Virus record (IMG/VR): IMGVR_UViG_2547132415_000018
Direction: 5' to 3' (one strand)
Origin: a virus
Lineage: Duplodnaviria > Heunggongvirae > Uroviricota > Caudoviricetes
Length of the DNA: 5,312 nucleotides
The position numbers and the translations under genes were made by a program. The notes under the pieces are model-generated. The model saw only the letters and a program-made list of their open reading frames with translations. It was not told the DNA's origin and searched no databases. Below, one piece after another: positions 145-5,312 of the stretch. Position 1 is the stretch's first letter; each line of letters opens with the position of its first letter.

Positions 145-2286
145 ATGTCAACCGGATTACGTTTCACACTTGAAGTGGACGGCCTGCCACCGGACGCGTT
201 TGCGGTGGTTTCCTTTCATCTCACCCAGTCACTCTCTTCGCTCTTTTCCCTCGATCTCTCTCTGGTCAGCCAGCAGTTTCTCTCCCTTGAATTTGCGCAG
301 GTGCTGGACAAAATGGCCTACCTGACGGTATGGCAGGGCGATGAAGTACAGCGCCGGGTGAAAGGCGTGGTGACCTGGTTTGAACTCGGGGAGAACGACA
401 AAAACCAGATGCTGTACAGCATGAAGGTGCACCCGCCGCTGTGGCGTGCCGGTCTGCGCCAGAACTTCCGTATCTTCCAGAACGAGGACATCAAAAGCAT
501 CCTCGGCACGATGTTGCAGGAAAACGGGGTGACCGAATGGAGTCCGCTGTTCAGCGAGCCGCATCCTTCCCGTGAGTTTTGTGTCCAGTACGGTGAGACT
601 GATTACGATTTCCTGTGCCGGATGGCGGCGGAGGAAGGCATCTTCTTTTATGAGGAGCATGCTTACAAAAGTACCGACCAGAGCCTGGTGCTGTGCGACA
701 CAGTCCGCCATCTGCCCGAATCTTTTGAAATCCCATGGAACCCGAACACCCGTACCGAGGTGAGCACCCTCTGCATCAGCCAGTTCCGCTACAGCGCACA
801 AATCCGCCCTTCTTCCGTGGTGACCAAAGACTACACCTTTAAACGCCCCGGCTGGGCCGGACGTTTTGAACAGGAAGGCCAGCACCAGGACTACCAGCGC
901 ACGCAGTATGAAGTGTATGACTACCCCGGACGTTTCAAGGGTGCCCACGGGCAGAACTTTGCCCGCTGGCAGATGGACGGCTGGCGAAACAATGCAGAAA
1001 CCGCGCGGGGAATGAGCCGCTCGCCGGAGATATGGCCGGGACGGCGAATTGTGCTGACGGGGCATCCGCAGGCGAACCTGAACCGGGAATGGCAGGTGGT
1101 GGCAAGTGAACTGCACGGCGAGCAGCCGCAGGCGGTGCCGGGACGCAGGGGTTCAGGAACCACGCTGGATAACCATTTTGCGGTAATACCGGCAGACAGA
1201 ACATGGCGACCACAGCCGTTGCTGAAACCGCTGGTGGACGGCCCGCAGAGCGCCGTCGTGACGGGACCGGCAGGCGAGGAAATCTTCTGTGATGAACATG
1301 GCCGCGTGCGGGTGAAATTTAACTGGGACCGTTATAACCCGTCAAACCAGGACAGTTCATGCTGGATCCGTGTGGCACAGGCGTGGGCAGGCACCGGCTT
1401 TGGTAACCTGGCGATACCGCGTGTGGGTCAGGAGGTGATTGTGGACTTCCTCAACGGCGACCCGGACCAGCCGATCATTATGGGGCGTACCTACCACCAG
1501 GAAAACCGCACCCCCGGCAGCCTGCCGGGGACGAAGACGCAGATGACGATCCGCTCGAAAACCTATAAGGGCAGCGGGTTTAATGAACTGAAGTTTGACG
1601 ATGCGACAGGGAAAGAACAGGTCTACATCCACGCGCAGAAGAACATGAACACCGAGGTGCTGAATAACCGCACCACTGATGTGATAAACAACCATGCCGA
1701 AAAAATAGGTAACAACCAGGCGATCACCGTTACCAATAACCAGATCCAGAACATTGGCGTTAATCAGATACAGACGGTTGGTGTCAACCAGGTGGAAACG
1801 GTGGGCAGTAACCAGATTATCAAAGTGGGATCAAACCAGGTTGAAAAGGTGGGGATCATTCGTGCGCTGACGGTGGGTGTGGCTTACCAGACGACGGTAG
1901 GCGGCATTATGAATACCTCGGTGGCGTTGTTGCAGTCCTCACAGGTAGGGCTGCATAAATCACTGATGGTGGGAATGGGCTACAGCGTCAATGTGGGGAA
2001 TAACGTCACCTTCTCGGTGGGCAAGACAATGAAGGAAAACACCGGACAAACAGCAGTTTATTCTGCCGGTGAGCATCTTGAACTCTGCTGTGGTAAGGCA
2101 AGGCTGGTGCTGACGAAGGACGGAAGCATATTTCTCAATGGTACGCACATTCATCTGGAAGGGGAGTCGGATGTGAACGGTGATGCGCCAGTGATTAACT
2201 GGAACTGTGGTGCCACACAACCTGTACCGGATGCGCCTGTGCCGAAAGATTTACCCCCCGGAATGCCGGATATGCGGCAATTTTGA
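145..2286 (+). CDS. vgrG: Type VI secretion system spike/tip protein VgrG (713 aa)
   Basis: ORF 109..2286 from the supplied track. I prefer the internal ATG at 145 (MSTGLRFTLEVDGL...) because GGAGG lies 5 nt upstream, whereas the 109 start adds 12 hydrophobic residues with no ribosome-binding site. The translation has the typical VgrG layout: a gp27-like N-terminal region, a central region (VKFNWDRY...GQEVIVDFLNGDPDQPIIMGRTYH), and a gp5-like beta-helix made of VxxNQ octapeptide repeats. Confidence 0.92.
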   Translation: MSTGLRFTLEVDGLPPDAFAVVSFHLTQSLSSLFSLDLSLVSQQFLSLEFAQVLDKMAYLTVWQGDEVQRRVKGVVTWFELGENDKNQMLYSMKVHPPLWRAGLRQNFRIFQNEDIKSILGTMLQENGVTEWSPLFSEPHPSREFCVQYGETDYDFLCRMAAEEGIFFYEEHAYKSTDQSLVLCDTVRHLPESFEIPWNPNTRTEVSTLCISQFRYSAQIRPSSVVTKDYTFKRPGWAGRFEQEGQHQDYQRTQYEVYDYPGRFKGAHGQNFARWQMDGWRNNAETARGMSRSPEIWPGRRIVLTGHPQANLNREWQVVASELHGEQPQAVPGRRGSGTTLDNHFAVIPADRTWRPQPLLKPLVDGPQSAVVTGPAGEEIFCDEHGRVRVKFNWDRYNPSNQDSSCWIRVAQAWAGTGFGNLAIPRVGQEVIVDFLNGDPDQPIIMGRTYHQENRTPGSLPGTKTQMTIRSKTYKGSGFNELKFDDATGKEQVYIHAQKNMNTEVLNNRTTDVINNHAEKIGNNQAITVTNNQIQNIGVNQIQTVGVNQVETVGSNQIIKVGSNQVEKVGIIRALTVGVAYQTTVGGIMNTSVALLQSSQVGLHKSLMVGMGYSVNVGNNVTFSVGKTMKENTGQTAVYSAGEHLELCCGKARLVLTKDGSIFLNGTHIHLEGESDVNGDAPVINWNCGATQPVPDAPVPKDLPPGMPDMRQF
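1708..1851 (+). repeat. Six tandem 24-bp units encoding the VgrG beta-helix octapeptide repeats (GNNQAITV, TNNQIQNI, GVNQIQTV, GVNQVETV, GSNQIIKV, GSNQVEKV)
   Basis: The 8-codon periodicity with a conserved N-Q at positions 3-4 and V/I at position 8 is visible in the translation and as a recurring AAYCAG in the DNA. This is a coding-sequence repeat inside vgrG, not an independent element. Confidence 0.7.
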
Positions 2287-2361: not shown

Positions 2362-2640
2362 ATGGGCGGAAAACCGGCGGCGCGGCAGGGTGATATGACC
2401 CGCAAGGGACTGGATATTGTGCAGGGTTCAGCGGGGGTGCTGATAGGTGCGCCGACGGGAGTGGCCTGTTCGGTATGTCCGGGAGGGATTACCTATGCTA
2501 ACCCGGTGAACCCGCTGCTGGGTGCGAAGGTGCTACCGGGCGAGACGGACCTTGCGCTGCCCGGCCCGCTGCCGTTTATTCTTTCCCGCGCCTACAGCAG
2601 CTACCGGACCAGAACACCCGCGCCGGTGGGGGTGTTTGGT
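2362..2640 (+). other. PAAR domain coding region at the N-terminus of the Rhs protein (approximate extent)
   Basis: A PAAR motif at residues 5-8 (KPAARQGD) followed by a Gly/Cys-rich stretch ([14 protein letters not shown]). The domain boundary is estimated by eye, not computed. Confidence 0.5.
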
Positions 2641-4542
2641 CCCGGCTGGAAAGCGCCCTTCGATATCCGCTTACAGATACGCGATGAAGGCCTGATACTC
2701 AACGACAACGGCGGCAGGAGCATTCACTTTGAGCCGCTGTTTCCCGGCGAGATAAGCTACAGCCGCAGCGAGTCACTCTGGCTGGCGCGGGGCGGGGTGG
2801 CGGAGCAGCACAGTTCGCAGCCGCTAAGCGCACTCTGGCAGGTGCTGCCGGAAGATGTTCGCCTGAGTCCGCATGTGTACCTGGCGACAAACAGCCTTAA
2901 GAGGCCGTGGTGGATACTCAGCTGGCCGGAGCGGGTGCCGGGGGCGGACGAGGTGCTGCCGCCGGAGCCGCCCGCATACCGGGTGCTGACGGGCGTGGTG
3001 GACGGCTTCGGGCGGACGCTGACTTTCCACCGGGCGGCGGAGGGTGACGTGGCGGGCGCGGTGACGGGGGTGACGGACGGCGCGGGCCGCTGTTTTCACC
3101 TGGTGCTGACCACACAGGCGCAGCGGGCGGAAGCCTTCCGTAAACAGCGCGCCACGTCTTTATCTTCCCCTGCCGGTCCCCGTTCTGCTTCCTCTTCTTC
3201 TGCTTTCCCCGACACGCTGCCCGCCGGTACAGAATACGGTGCCGATAACGGTATCCGGCTGGAGGCGGTGTGGCTGACACACGACCCGGCATACCCGGAT
3301 GAACAGCCGACTGCGCCGCTGGCGCGCTACCTCTATGACCCGCTGGGCCGCCGGACGGGAAAACGGGTATGGCGGCGGGAGCGTGACCTGACGGGGTGGA
3401 TGTCGCTGTCGCGTAAACCGGAGGAGACCTGGTACGGGTGGGACGGTGACAGGCTGACCACTGTACAGACCCAACAGACAAGAATCCAGACGGTATACCA
3501 GCCGGGAAGCTTCACGCCGCTCCTGAGAATCGAAACAGAGAATGGCGAACAGGCGAAGGCGCGGCACCGGAGCCTAGCGGAGGTGTTGCAGGAGGACACG
3601 GGGGTGACGCTTCCGGCGGAGCTGGCGGTGATGCTGGGGAGGCTGGAGCGGGAACTGCGTGCGGGAGCGGTGAGTGCGGAGAGTGAGGCATGGCTTGCGC
3701 AGTGCGGGCTGACGGTGGAGCAGATGGAAAGCCAGATGGAGGCGGAATACATCCCGGAGCGGAGGCTGCATCTTTACCACTGTGACCACCGGGGACTGCC
3801 GCAGGCGCTCATCAGCCCGGAAGGGGAAACGGCGTGGTGCGGGGAGTATGACGAGTGGGGGAACCAGCTTAATGAGGAGAACCCGCATCACCTGTACCAG
3901 CCGTACCGTTTGCCGGGGCAGCAGTATGATGAGGAGTCGGGACTGTATTACAACCGTCACCGGTACTACGATCCGTTGCAGGGGCGGTATATCACCCAGG
4001 ATCCGATAGGGTTGAAGGGGGGAATAAATCTATACACGTATCCACTGGCACCAATACGTTACACTGATCCACTGGGGTTAGAACGAGTTATAAGTGTATA
4101 TGGGCCTCCCGCTCCAGACCGGGCAGGTGCTGAAACTCCTCTTGTTCTTACTGATATGACTGGAGGAGTGACTATTTATTATGATCCTGAAACAGGTGAT
4201 TCAATGACTTTTGATAGTAGCAATAGAATTGATCGTCGTTCTCAACGTGGTGCTGGTGATCCATATACAGGTGAAGTCGTTGGTTGTGAGACAAATGAAT
4301 CAGGAATATCGGCAGCATATGGCACAACGAAGATCTATACTACAGATACTAGAGCAAGATGGCTACATGGTGGGGGATCATCGTTGCGCGATCCTTATGC
4401 TCCTCGACAAGGCTGGAAACCAACTATGGGATGTACCCGTGCACAGAATGAAGATGTAGATGAGTTGTGTAAGAAAGTGACAAGTTGGATGTATTCGCAT
4501 CCTGGAGAGAGAATTAGATATGAACGTTTTAAGACACGTTAA
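2362..4542 (+). CDS. PAAR-domain Rhs-family polymorphic toxin, 726 aa, apparently lacking most of the YD-repeat shell through an in-frame internal deletion; carries a C-terminal toxin domain
   Basis: The ATG at 2362 is preceded by GAAGGAA (2348-2354). The N-terminus ([12 protein letters not shown]...[14 protein letters not shown]...[20 protein letters not shown]) is the PAAR-containing N-terminal region typical of E. coli RhsA-like proteins. The C-terminal part (YLYDPLGRR...[14 protein letters not shown]...[45 protein letters not shown]) is the conserved end of the Rhs core. Canonical Rhs proteins are about 1400 aa, so a 726-aa protein with both ends must be missing the shell. Confidence 0.88.
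3331..4080 (+). other. Retained C-terminal part of the Rhs core (Rhs repeat-associated core region) ending in PxxxxDPxGL
   Basis: The segment begins right after the inferred deletion junction ([14 protein letters not shown]). DPIGL is encoded at 4000-4014 and the terminal [10 protein letters not shown] ends at 4080, which is where Rhs C-terminal toxin domains normally begin. Confidence 0.6.
4081..4539 (+). other. C-terminal toxin domain of the Rhs protein (residues 574-726), candidate YkuD-like L,D-transpeptidase-fold peptidoglycan-targeting toxin
   Basis: The sequence becomes AT-rich immediately after the DPLGL demarcation. Residues 667-702 read WLHGGG-x18[14 protein letters not shown], which resembles the H-G...(S/T)-x-G-C-x-R-x-x-N-x-D catalytic signature of YkuD-type L,D-transpeptidases. 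The family assignment is by eye only. Confidence 0.45.
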
Positions 4543-4738
4543 TGCGATTAACATGGGAGTGTGCATTCTAATTTTGGTTATTGGATGTGCAAATGCTAAA
4601 GTTCTTAAACGATGTATATTACCCGCTCCTGATGGTGGCGTAGAAAAACTATCAAAACCCAACTTACATGGAGTAATTAAAAAAGTTGATTTGAACACAA
4701 ATGAAGCGGAAATTAAAATAAAAGAGGGGGGGCAGTGA
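4520..4738 (+). CDS. Small predicted lipoprotein (72 aa), candidate cognate immunity protein
   Basis: The ATG at 4520 overlaps the last 23 nt of the rhs gene and is preceded by GGAGAGAG (4504-4511). The N-terminus [23 protein letters not shown] has a charged n-region, a hydrophobic core and a lipobox-like VIGC. Its position directly downstream of an Rhs toxin domain is the classic immunity-gene position. The alternative start at ATG 4553 lacks a good ribosome-binding site. Confidence 0.5.
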
Positions 4739-4911
4739 GTTTTATTTTTAATGAGGAAACATTGTATTTTACTGTTTTTGGTGGGGATTTTATTATGGAT
4801 GATTTAAAAAAAGTAAAAAATACGGAAGCATGGGTATGGTATAAAAATTGCGATAGTAAAAATAAAAATGTGGCAGTTGAACTTCTTCAAATCTACGAAT
4901 TGCATCAATGA
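4735..4911 (+). CDS. Hypothetical small protein (58 aa from GTG 4735; 38 aa if started at ATG 4795)
   Basis: The ORF is not in the supplied track because it starts with GTG. That GTG overlaps the stop of the upstream ORF (GTGA) and is preceded by the strong purine-rich AGAGGGGGGG (4722-4732). The AT-rich composition and small size make this a weak call. Confidence 0.25.
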   Translation: MSFIFNEETLYFTVFGGDFIMDDLKKVKNTEAWVWYKNCDSKNKNVAVELLQIYELHQ

Positions 4912-4951
4912 AAAATATAGTTAAATAGAGAAGGTTATTAATAGCAGGAAA

Positions 4952-4976
4952 AGCATCACGTGATGCTGATTTTTTG
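4952..4976 (+). terminator. Candidate rho-independent terminator (palindrome AGCATCAC/GTGATGCT followed by a T6 run)
   Basis: A perfect 8+8 inverted repeat at 4952-4967 is followed by GA then TTTTTT (4970-4975), downstream of the toxin, immunity and small-ORF cluster. The very short loop is a caveat; it could instead be a protein-binding palindrome. Confidence 0.4.
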
Positions 4977-5312
4977 CACTAAATAATTCGCATTTTATGT
5001 TTAAAAATTGAGATATTCCTTATTACCTAAAGCTGTTTTTTATTGCTTATACATGATCAAATACTCCTTACATAATTAAGGAGAACAAAATGGAACTTAA
5101 AAAATTGATGGAGCATATTTCTATTATCCCCGATTACAGACAAGCCTGGAAAGTGGAACATAAATTATCGGATATTCTACTGTTGACTATTTGTGCCGTT
5201 ATTTCTGGTGCAGAAGGTTGGGAAGATATAGAGGATTTTGGGGAAACACATCTCGATTTTTTGAAGCAATATGGTGATTTTGAAAATGGCATTCCTGTTC
5301 ACGATACCATTG
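4977..5312 (+). mobile_element. Probable left part of an H-repeat (ISAs1-family) insertion element; left boundary not determined
   Basis: Inferred only from the transposase gene at 5090 onward. I could not identify the terminal inverted repeat, so the start coordinate is a placeholder somewhere between 4912 and 5089. Confidence 0.3.
5090..5312 (+). CDS. ISAs1-family transposase (H-repeat-associated protein), N-terminal 74 codons only; the gene continues past the window end
   Basis: The ATG at 5090 is preceded by AAGGAG (5078-5083). The translation [74 protein letters not shown] matches, from memory, the N-terminus of E. coli H-repeat-associated proteins (YhhI/YdcC-type). There is no stop before the window edge. 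Confidence 0.85.

Follow-up and report, generated by a model that had tools for sequence, protein, structure and literature searches.

The window, by which we mean the whole 5,312-nt stretch of DNA analysed here, carries on its plus strand a vgrG gene, an rhs gene ending in a variable toxin tip, a disrupted immunity gene, an AT-rich spacer and the beginning of a transposase gene (Table 1). The longest open reading frame of vgrG begins at 109, and the RefSeq-annotated start equals 145. The ISAs1 gene contributes its first 74 codons, which include the N-terminal DDE_Tnp_1-associated domain, and the spacer in front of it contains a terminator-like hairpin at 4952-4967. No RNA elements or tRNAs were found anywhere in the window. 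Among complete E. coli genomes none corresponds to the window throughout, the best full-length match being 97% identical; AR_0061 has only 4 mismatches from ~1500 onward but diverges by ~6% in the 5' half of vgrG.

Table 1. Features of the window, with GC content by segment and the basis of each assignment.
Feature	Position	Strand	GC	Basis and remarks
vgrG, T6SS spike protein	145..2286	+		Pfam Phage_GPD 1.9e-74, Gp5_trimer_C, Phage_base_V; VgrG annotation in L001 and L016
Rhs N-terminal region and core, internally deleted	2362..4023	+	0.647	GC3 0.756; Pfam DUF6531 1.3e-18, RHS 2.6e-14
In-frame 2055-bp (685-codon) deletion junction	3325..3330	+		blastn against full-length alleles L016 and L002 (1411 aa)
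First DPxGL motif, DPIGL, aa 547-551	4000..4014	+		Core-like composition; high nucleotide identity with other alleles
Compositional switch point	4017..4023	+		Change-point in GC3, 0.756 to 0.231; high nucleotide identity with other rhs alleles also ends here
Inter-motif stretch and second DPxGL (DPLGL 4066-4080, aa 569-573)	4024..4080	+	0.421	Protein-level conservation; tip-like composition
Rhs C-terminal toxin, E574-R726, 153 aa	4081..4542	+	0.437	YkuD-fold L,D-transpeptidase/carboxypeptidase-like domain; candidate catalytic H669 and C691
Immunity gene, disrupted	4520..4911	+	0.324	Comparison with L002 12574-12966
Homopolymeric G7 tract in immunity gene	4726..4732	+		G8 gives an intact ORF; G7 (window) gives a -1 frameshift
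Right conserved cassette flank, AT-rich spacer before ISAs1	4945..5089	+	0.283	Common to loci with other tips; blastn against L032 and L033 resumes at 4944/4945
ISAs1-family (H-repeat) transposase gene, 5' end, running off the window	5090..5312	+		Pfam DDE_Tnp_1_assoc (PF13808) 7e-26, on 5090-5311; ISAs1/ISEc1 annotation in L001 and L016

The rhs gene has the hallmarks of a T6SS-associated Rhs locus: vgrG lies directly upstream, the N-terminal region is of the enterobacterial Rhs kind, the DPxGL motif is doubled, the C-terminus is variable and followed by a small immunity ORF, and a GC-rich core is joined to an AT-rich tip. A literal P-A-A-R stands at residues 5-8, and the Pfam PAAR model did not match the Rhs N-terminus at E<=0.1. 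The NCBIfam RHS_core profile aligned residues 1-323 to its positions 1-322, with an equivalog score of 1135 bits that falls under the 2000-bit cut-off, and the complete YD-repeat shell (a core of ~1260 aa) is not present; the gene product is a truncated derivative of an Rhs family member. The deletion takes out most of the shell, its ends being two RY-x-Y coding motifs with TAC microhomology, and its exact single-piece junction occurs in only 2 of 5426 genomes.

By sequence family and structural model, the tip encodes a YkuD-fold toxin. The isolated C-terminal region matched Pfam YkuD (PF03734) at 25.1 bits against a cut-off of 23.4 (E = 3e-5), and the His and Cys of the candidate active site were invariant in 18 homologues, as were the surrounding G-C-x-R-x-x-N residues at the Cys. 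The motif reads T-M-G-C-T, with Met in place of the His of canonical (S/T)HGC, and 18 residues separate His from Thr, as against 14-17. An AlphaFold2 model of moderate confidence (mean pLDDT 76.6, pTM 0.76) was compared with PDB structures by Foldseek; the best eight matches were all YkuD-fold proteins (Csd6, Pgp2, Bd1075, DpaA and LDTs; probability 0.93-1.00, TMq 0.44-0.58), and those below them had probabilities of <=0.08. The fold assignment draws on Pfam and the predicted structure because sequence searches against PDB chains gave no toxin match: the single sequence returned chance-level matches only, and the family profile matched only the DPxGL part of Rhs structures. The domain accounts for 245 cluster representatives among 1.84 billion and, in nearly all of the matches listed, sits at the extreme C-terminus of proteins of up to ~2100 aa. 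L,D-peptidase toxin domains have previously been predicted on Rhs proteins (PMC3482391).

The immunity gene, 130 aa in its intact form, is split in the window into ORFs 4520..4738 (72 aa, with a signal peptide/lipobox LVIGC) and 4735..4911 (58 aa). A probe for the G7 tract matched at >=99% in 184 of 1015 genomes, so that ~18% of carriers are frameshifted, and the one-difference band comprised 829. In six distant loci, including those of Acidovorax, Curvibacter, Gallionellaceae and a gammaproteobacterial MAG, a toxin homologue is directly followed by an immunity homologue, which carries a signal peptide. No named family in Pfam or NCBIfam matched the protein above cut-off; the sole Pfam match of the intact form was a sub-threshold DUF4367 (19.8 bits). 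Nor did we find significant signs of an internal promoter for this gene in the AT-rich toxin region, with 8 promoter-like sites in 3700-5312 against 4.8 +/- 2.2 expected. With 685 codons of the shell lost through an in-frame deletion and a frameshift in the immunity gene at the G7 tract, the toxin/immunity system of this copy is probably dead.

An earlier note, made from the sequence alone, had described a sharp switch from GC-rich to AT-rich DNA at about 4020. In the rhs ORF (2362..4542), maximum likelihood puts the GC3 change-point right behind codon 553 (nt 4020); its 2-lnL support interval spans seven nucleotides (4017-4023), and the gain in lnL is 77.2, compared to a maximum of 9.55 among 1000 shuffles; all-position GC places the change at 3987-4022 (gain 36.7, shuffle maximum 7.7). 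A profile without a step at this position, one of two contrary outcomes named in the note, is thus not what we observe. The coordinates that the note gives for DPIGL and DPLGL are also exact. The switch lies between both motifs, directly after DPIGLKGG and not 3' of both, so that the second DPLGL is encoded in tip-like composition. A second, softer fall follows around 4540-4640, from ~44% in the toxin to ~30% in the immunity gene and spacer, and the beginning of the ISAs1 gene has 37% GC. The AT-rich stretch drawn in the note from 4020 to 5090 therefore begins where it was placed, but low GC continues past 5090.

The two motifs are 17 residues apart, and the Rhs_assc_core model (NCBIfam TIGR03696) matched residues 496-573 at 82 bits, against a cut-off of 32.5. 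In Photorhabdus Rhs1, cleavage occurs after two DPLGL motifs with the same 17-residue distance, the catalytic Asp lying in the second (PMC8636562), and PxxxxDPxGL demarcates Rhs-CT regions (PMC3150448). By analogy, an aspartyl autoproteolysis site is predicted here after L573. Across six unrelated E. coli tips, the GC step was found at or between both motifs, +7 to +22 codons from the first Asp. The same step was seen outside E. coli, the clearest examples among the loci scanned in other taxa being those of Acidovorax and Curvibacter. The second contrary outcome named in the note, a homologous toxin domain in a uniformly GC-rich gene, did not appear by GC3, which is lower in the toxin than in the core at every locus. 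The nearest approach was locus L024, in which core and toxin have the same total GC (0.58) and the drop is confined to GC3, from 0.668 to 0.537.

We then turn to rhs alleles that share the core, in which homology is kept up to 4023-4083 and is lost beyond. A junction probe (3800-4300) matched in 3811 E. coli genomes and was full-length in only 916; the alleles lacking a full-length match all end at window position 4023, 4043, 4047 or 4083, and megablast end points against other alleles lie at 4023 and 4026. Aligned without gaps, rhsA, rhsC, rhsD and an O157 allele agree with the window at ~80-95% of positions up to ~4024, at ~55-60% over 4025-4084 and at random thereafter. Of 5426 E. coli genomes, 1026 carry the tip and immunity segment (4084-4911); in 1021 of them its identity is >=99%, while the cores differ by 3-20%. 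This segment occurs at two loci, T6SS/yafV (L001, L016) and yncH-rhsE-pptA (L002), both of which house unrelated tips in other strains: in L032 the yafV locus has one of ydcD type, and in L033 the rhsE locus has dsORF-h1. In 10 other taxa, toxin homologues are each preceded by an Rhs DPxGL motif. The end of homology at 4023-4083, the presence of one tip at two loci and the variety of tips per locus support the proposal of the note that an exchanged C-terminal toxin/immunity cassette has been grafted onto a conserved core. Since no source of the cassette came to light and the closest toxin homologues from outside the enterobacteria are only 40-53% identical, the word horizontal in that proposal draws on distribution and composition.

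Two pairwise comparisons were used to map crossover positions. In the comparison of two loci, near-identity sets in >=650 nt upstream of DPxGL and is lost again near 4945. In the comparison inside the yafV locus, identity is 98% in the left flank, which extends to ~1.5 kb upstream of DPxGL, and 96.7% in the right flank; on the tip side of the left flank, the final ~0.9 kb of the core aligns at only 80%, and the tip is without homology. From these two comparisons only, recent crossovers appear to lie 0.65-1.5 kb upstream of DPxGL, in the core, and downstream near 4945. The note had taken the DPxGL region as both recombination and demarcation point; homology does end there, but the mapped recent crossovers lie upstream in the core. 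A search for repeats around the junction suggestive of site-specific recombination returned only short, chance-level matches. These observations agree with published descriptions of Rhs genes, in which core G+C exceeds tip G+C, tips are common to several loci and recombination in the core moves core fragments of variable length (PMC2935791), and in which a GC-rich core is joined to an AT-rich extension (PMC11083783). The GC step is the seam of a conserved core and a swappable cassette, an ordinary and already known feature of Rhs.

We also considered whether the contrast is a systematic property of Rhs genes and not mainly the footprint of a low-GC donor, an account we regard as rather unlikely and one in which exchange still happens. 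Frequent gene conversion among paralogous cores or coding constraint on the YD repeats, for example, would keep the core rich in GC, while tips and immunity genes would drift or be selected towards AT, through causes such as AT-biased mutation in accessory DNA that rarely recombines, silencing by H-NS or low expression; the contrast would then arise without recent horizontal transfer. GC3 is 0.18-0.29 in all six unrelated E. coli tips, whatever the toxin type, and in each of the other taxa examined (locus GC 0.43 to 0.65) the toxin has a lower GC3 than the core. In low-GC hosts the core stands above its local background (0.482 against a locus value of 0.432 in L022; 0.562 against 0.458 in L028), and the same toxin family ranges in GC3 from 0.30 to 0.68 by host, so that composition partly tracks the host. 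The AT-richness of all tips in all hosts may reflect a general process rather than donor composition. However, such a property is compatible with cassette exchange, which is itself shown directly; the step is abrupt within ~7 nt, a better fit to a junction of two histories than to a selective gradient; and the excess of promoter-like sites noted above is not significant.

A different question is whether the toxin belongs to the Tlde1 family (DUF2778; Tae5-7 in a preprint) of T6SS L,D-carboxypeptidase/transpeptidase effectors, which we judge highly improbable. Members of this family occur fused to Rhs in Shigella and Escherichia, Rhs-DUF2778 of Shigella sonnei being one example (bioRxiv 10.1101/2020.02.18.954545), and the existence of such fusions speaks for membership. 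So does the common fold class: Csd6, the best structural neighbour of the window toxin, has also been reported as the nearest structural homologue of Tlde1a (PMC9638812). Against this, the toxin matches Pfam YkuD above cut-off and shows no DUF2778 (PF10908) match even at E<=10; its H669 and C691 are 22 residues apart, compared to 10 in Tlde1a (H121, C131); neither the single sequence nor the family profile matches Tlde1a chains in the PDB sequence set; and DUF2195, the Tldi1 family, is absent from the Pfam matches of the immunity protein. On the absence of DUF2778 and DUF2195 and on the His-Cys spacing, we reject this identity.

Weakest of all is the idea that the GC difference reflects amino-acid composition only, with Gly/Arg/Ala/Asp-rich YD repeats set against a small enzyme domain and no separate history, which we consider next to impossible and which is ruled out as the cause of the step by GC at codon positions 1, 2 and 3 (0.676, 0.508 and 0.756 in the core; 0.543, 0.543 and 0.231 in the tip): position 1 does differ somewhat, but position 2 is if anything higher in the tip and position 3 collapses, so that the change is almost wholly at synonymous sites. 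In addition, the motif at 4024-4080 is conserved in all alleles at the protein level yet has tip-like codons, and homologous toxin domains elsewhere reach the GC3 of 0.68 already mentioned.

Collectively, we are confident that the window represents a T6SS effector locus of the E. coli type, made up of vgrG, rhs, the immunity gene and ISAs1, that the step at 4020 is a seam between two histories, that cassettes are swapped by recombination and that this copy is probably dead. The left part is the conserved GC-rich Rhs delivery core, 80-97% identical across the ~7-11 rhs copies of most E. coli genomes, and the right part an AT-rich cassette (~4024-4944) with its own second DPxGL, the 153-aa toxin and the immunity gene. 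On this reading, homologous recombination swaps such cassettes among rhs loci and strains. One crossover would fall somewhere in the conserved core, so that a variable length of the core 3' end moves with the tip, and the other in common downstream sequence, here the ISAs1-proximal flank from 4945. With crossovers so placed, DPxGL would be the limit of homology and a functional boundary, not the usual crossover site.

Known systems suggest how an intact copy may work. In a full-length Rhs protein, the N-terminus would dock on VgrG and the YD-repeat shell would enclose the toxin, which self-cleavage after DPLGL, at L573|E574, may set free. With H669 and C691 as catalytic residues, the freed YkuD-fold enzyme would work as an L,D-carboxypeptidase or transpeptidase on the stem peptides of peptidoglycan in the periplasm of the target cell, and sister cells would be protected from it by the exported immunity protein. 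Each of these steps, from autoproteolysis and enzyme activity to the periplasmic site of action and neutralisation, is inferred by analogy.

E. coli RhsA-E provide a close parallel with identical architecture: the GC-rich core, closed by DPxGL-17 aa-DPxGL, passes into a variable extension rich in AT, behind which come a small ORF and, as is often the case in Rhs elements, ISAs1 (H-repeat); rhsA, rhsC and rhsD drop in GC at the same place as the rhs gene of the window. In contrast to these, window-type rhs genes follow vgrG in a T6SS cluster or occupy the rhsE position, the tip is unlike those of the K-12 alleles, and the window copy has its in-frame core deletion and a frameshifted downstream ORF. 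The arrangement likewise matches the C-terminal displacement model (Jackson et al. 2009, PMC2935791) in the decoupling of core from tip, with one tip at several loci and several tips at one locus, and in recombination inside the core, by which an incoming tip brings along a piece of core whose length varies. It departs from that model in that the window has no downstream array of displaced 'orphan' tips and the right crossover appears to use the ISAs1-proximal flank; the model also proposes a circular intermediate. In CdiA-CT/CdiI systems, too, a conserved peptide motif (VENN) separates a delivery protein from exchangeable toxin/immunity cassettes, with abrupt loss of homology after the motif (PMC3150448), but CDI uses two-partner secretion, whereas Rhs proteins use the T6SS/Rhs route and their motif region is also an autoprotease site.

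With Tlde1/DUF2778 and Tldi1, the predicted toxin/immunity pair has in common T6SS delivery, a YkuD-related cysteine peptidase fold, an exported immunity protein and a probable target in periplasmic peptidoglycan stem peptides. Beyond the Pfam assignment and residue spacing discussed above, it differs in its TMGC motif, in an immunity protein of another, unnamed family and in its architecture, the window toxin being an Rhs C-terminal domain and Tlde1 a stand-alone cargo effector. We tentatively raise the possibility that the tip represents an uncharacterised YkuD-type T6SS/Rhs peptidoglycan effector family, distinct from Tlde1/DUF2778 and marked by the TMGC motif and an unnamed exported immunity family, in which the G7/G8 tract could be a slippage-prone on/off site and not a sign of simple decay.

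Together, these results rediscover a textbook trait, namely that Rhs genes combine a conserved GC-rich core with exchangeable AT-rich toxin/immunity tips. The GC3 step inside DPxGL-17 aa-DPxGL offers an aid to annotation, locating the toxin boundary to within a few codons, and a seam between both motifs implies that each cassette carries its own autoprotease and cleavage motif. The small, experimentally uncharacterised family of YkuD-type Rhs toxins, with an immunity family of its own, is a potential new peptidoglycan-targeting T6SS effector.

E. coli chromosomes match the entire window at 97-98% identity, and the colinear region of AR_0061 closes a T6SS cluster in the order tssB/C/E/F, hcp, vgrG, rhs, two small ORFs, ISEc1 and yafV. 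An O103 strain carries the same rhs tip, the AT-rich part that follows the Rhs core, at the yncH-vgrG-rhsE-ISAs1-pptA locus.

Coding features of the window and the evidence for each
Feature	Position (nt)	Annotation	Source
vgrG	109/145-2286	Phage_GPD, gp5 C-terminal and OB domains	ORF listing, domain scans
rhs	2362-4542 (726 aa)	DUF6531, RHS core domain, weak C-terminal YkuD match	domain scans
Two small overlapping ORFs	4520-4738 and 4735-4911		ORF listing
ISAs1-family transposase gene, 5′ end only	from 5090		domain scan

Of the 83 mismatches to AR_0061, 79 fall in the 5′ half of vgrG (134-1500) and almost none beyond, and so the N-terminal half of vgrG is a different allele from the remaining locus, which is a mosaic. 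No match above 98.6% to this 5′ half was found among complete E. coli genomes; positions 1-133 match the upstream region of the rhsE locus and not that of the yafV locus.

As the earlier note proposed, GC content switches sharply at about 4020, far beyond chance: the maximum-likelihood change-point in third-position GC (GC3) lies after codon 553, at nt 4020 (2-lnL interval 4017-4023), with a gain of 77.2 lnL units against a maximum of 9.55 in 1000 shuffles. GC falls from 0.647 over the core (2362-4023) to 0.421 over 4024-4080 and 0.437 over 4081-4542, and a second, gentler drop to ~30% follows at the toxin/immunity boundary (0.324 in the immunity ORFs, 0.283 over 4945-5089). The contrast between core and tip is synonymous, with GC at codon positions 1/2/3 of 0.676/0.508/0.756 in the core and 0.543/0.543/0.231 in the tip. 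The two DPxGL motifs, whose coordinates the note had placed exactly (DPIGL, 4000-4014; DPLGL, 4066-4080), are separated by 17 residues, and the switch falls between them, directly 3′ of DPIGLKGG, so that the second motif already shows the codon usage of the tip. Several long minus-strand ORFs over the GC-rich core (2824-3960), among them 2918-3481 (187 aa), 3333-3752 (139 aa) and 3574-3960 (128 aa), cease once the sequence becomes AT-rich, which is what shadow ORFs of high GC, and not real genes, would be expected to do.

Alleles sharing the core but differing after DPxGL, the comparison the note had called for, were found, with homology ending between 4023 and 4083. A 501-nt probe spanning the junction matched 3811 of 5426 E. 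coli genomes, 916 of them at full length, and every shorter match ended at 4023, 4043, 4047 or 4083. Against rhsA, rhsC, rhsD and an O157 allele, ungapped identity is 80-95% to ~4024, ~55-60% over 4025-4084 and random beyond, with protein conservation ending past DPLGL. In all of these alleles GC drops in the same way, with GC3 change-points 7 to 22 codons past the first Asp, between the two motifs. The tip and immunity segment (4084-4911) occurs in 1026 E. coli genomes and is at least 99% identical in 1021 of these, against 3-20% divergence among the cores.

A uniformly GC-rich gene bearing the same toxin, which would speak against this reading, was sought in other taxa and not found: at every locus with an Rhs core ahead of the toxin, GC3 is lower in the toxin (0.30-0.68) than in the core (0.54-0.82). 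The nearest to a uniform gene, in a Gemmatimonadaceae MAG, has a total GC of 0.58 in both parts and a GC3 that declines from 0.67 to 0.54. Given this range of toxin GC3, the domain is not intrinsically AT-rich. Each tip in each examined host is GC-poorer than its own core, and in low-GC hosts the core exceeds the local background, leaving room, alongside donor composition, for a general process such as AT drift or silencing of accessory cassettes, or gene conversion in cores.

The reading of the junction as an exchangeable toxin/immunity cassette on a conserved core proved correct, since the same tip is found at two loci and different tips at one locus. When two full-length alleles with the same tip are compared, one from the T6SS/yafV locus (L016) and one from the rhsE locus (L002), most of the core is a mosaic of 82-97% identity, rising to at least 97.5% from ~1.3 kb and at least 99.5% from ~650 nt upstream of DPxGL; the near-identical block continues through the tip and immunity gene to ~4945. 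The yafV locus of strain JNE131328 (L032) has an unrelated tip, whose immunity gene is of the ydcD type; relative to L016, identity is 98% in the left flank as far as ~1.5 kb upstream of DPxGL, only 80% across the final ~0.9 kb of core and 96.7% in the right flank (ISAs1, yafV), and tip homology is absent over 4083-4944. The rhsE locus of another isolate (L033) has a dsORF-h1 tip. Of the two roles the note had assigned to DPxGL, demarcation thus stands and recombination point does not: crossovers map to the core and the ISAs1-proximal flank, the moved unit including a piece of the core 3′ end, and the motif is better described as the limit of homology. This pattern agrees with the C-terminal displacement model (PMC2935791).

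Displaced tips were also seen elsewhere. A Curvibacter microcysteis locus (L020, ~3494-9600) has four successive DPxGL-17 aa-DPxGL junctions with a different tip behind each, as is typical of arrays of displaced (orphan) Rhs tips, and two copies of the immunity homologue; in three further loci (L007-L009) the toxin homologue is an orphan downstream of a full-length Rhs-TseH gene. At the downstream edge of the cassette, just inside the right-hand conserved flank starting at 4944/4945, stands a terminator-like hairpin, AGCATCACGTGATGCT, followed by a T-run (4952-4977). Some strains have two tandem ISAs1 copies behind the rhs cassette (L032, 8299-10664; L002, 13323-15735), and L002 differs from the window by a 157-nt insertion flanked by a 21-nt overlap (window 4971-4991), which together suggest that rearrangements occur in the ISAs1-proximal region as well.

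The toxin domain (E574-R726, 153 aa) matches Pfam YkuD at 25.1 bits (gathering score 23.4). Across 18 homologues, His, Gly-Gly-Gly, Cys, Arg and Asn are invariant in a pattern that starts R-x-R-x-x-H-G-G-G (His and Cys being H669 and C691 of the Rhs protein). The motif (4363-4440) departs from the canonical L,D-transpeptidase (S/T)-H-G-C, and its His-to-Thr spacing is 18 residues versus 14-17. An AlphaFold2 model (pLDDT 76.6, pTM 0.76) retrieved only YkuD-fold enzymes as its top eight PDB matches, namely L,D-transpeptidases, the amidase DpaA and the L,D-carboxypeptidases Bd1075, Pgp2 and Csd6, the last of which is also nearest in structure to the characterised T6SS effector Tlde1a (PMC9638812). 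We nevertheless rejected membership of Tlde1/DUF2778: the domain lacks a DUF2778 match even at E≤10, a PDB chain search gave neither a sequence nor a profile match to Tlde1a, and the His-Cys distance is 22 versus 10 in Tlde1a. A comparative-genomics study of 2012 had predicted Rhs-borne toxin domains of the L,D-peptidase type (PMC3482391). With 245 representatives at E≤1e-3 among 1.84 billion, the present family is small; its proteins reach ~2100 aa, and the domain is at the extreme C-terminus in nearly all listed matches.

In most E. coli carriers the immunity gene is a single ORF of 130 aa that begins with a signal peptide and may include a lipobox (LVIGC). Homologues lie directly 3′ of toxin homologues in three Acidovorax genomes, Curvibacter, a Gallionellaceae MAG and a gammaproteobacterial MAG, and have a signal peptide and a common C-(I/V)-L-P-x-P-D-G-G motif; this synteny supports a toxin-immunity pair, which would act in the periplasm. 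Other toxin subgroups have different small exported proteins downstream. In the window, a G7 tract (4726-4732) shifts the frame and splits the gene into 72 and 58 aa; G8 gives the intact ORF. The G7 state occurs in ~184 of 1015 carrier genomes (~18%), and the tract could be a slippage hot spot. The run stands in a gene of ~32% GC and is also G7 in the full-length allele of L016; oddly, some strains have a frameshifted immunity gene although their toxin gene is full-length. In E. coli B (yafT-yafV region; L034, 4288-5358) the immunity gene alone is kept, 5′-truncated beside IS1 and followed by ISAs1 and yafV, an orphan remnant in derivatives that have lost the T6SS cluster, vgrG and rhs.

The window rhs is 2055 bp (685 codons) shorter than the 1411-aa alleles, an in-frame loss that takes out most of the YD-repeat shell, with the junction (3325-3330) between two R-Y-x-Y coding sites at a TAC microhomology; its NCBIfam RHS_core score is 1135 (cut-off 2000). 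Because the shell is missing, and going by Rhs structures (PMC8636562), this protein is unlikely to encapsulate or deliver its toxin. Just 2 of 5426 complete E. coli genomes have this exact junction; in several others the gene shows different internal deletions, and in AR_0369 a separate deletion has joined the 3′ part of rhs to a truncated icmF-like gene.

The junction of GC-rich core and AT-rich tip is a known property of Rhs genes. Core G+C above that of the tip, tips common to several loci and different tips at one position have been described (PMC2935791), DPxGL is the demarcation of Rhs-CT (PMC3150448), and it has been known for a long time that these genes combine a GC-rich core with an AT-rich extension (quoted in PMC11083783). 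Our analysis supports the cassette interpretation with the one refinement on DPxGL, and only the uncharacterised YkuD-type toxin/immunity family and its polymorphic G tract are mildly new.
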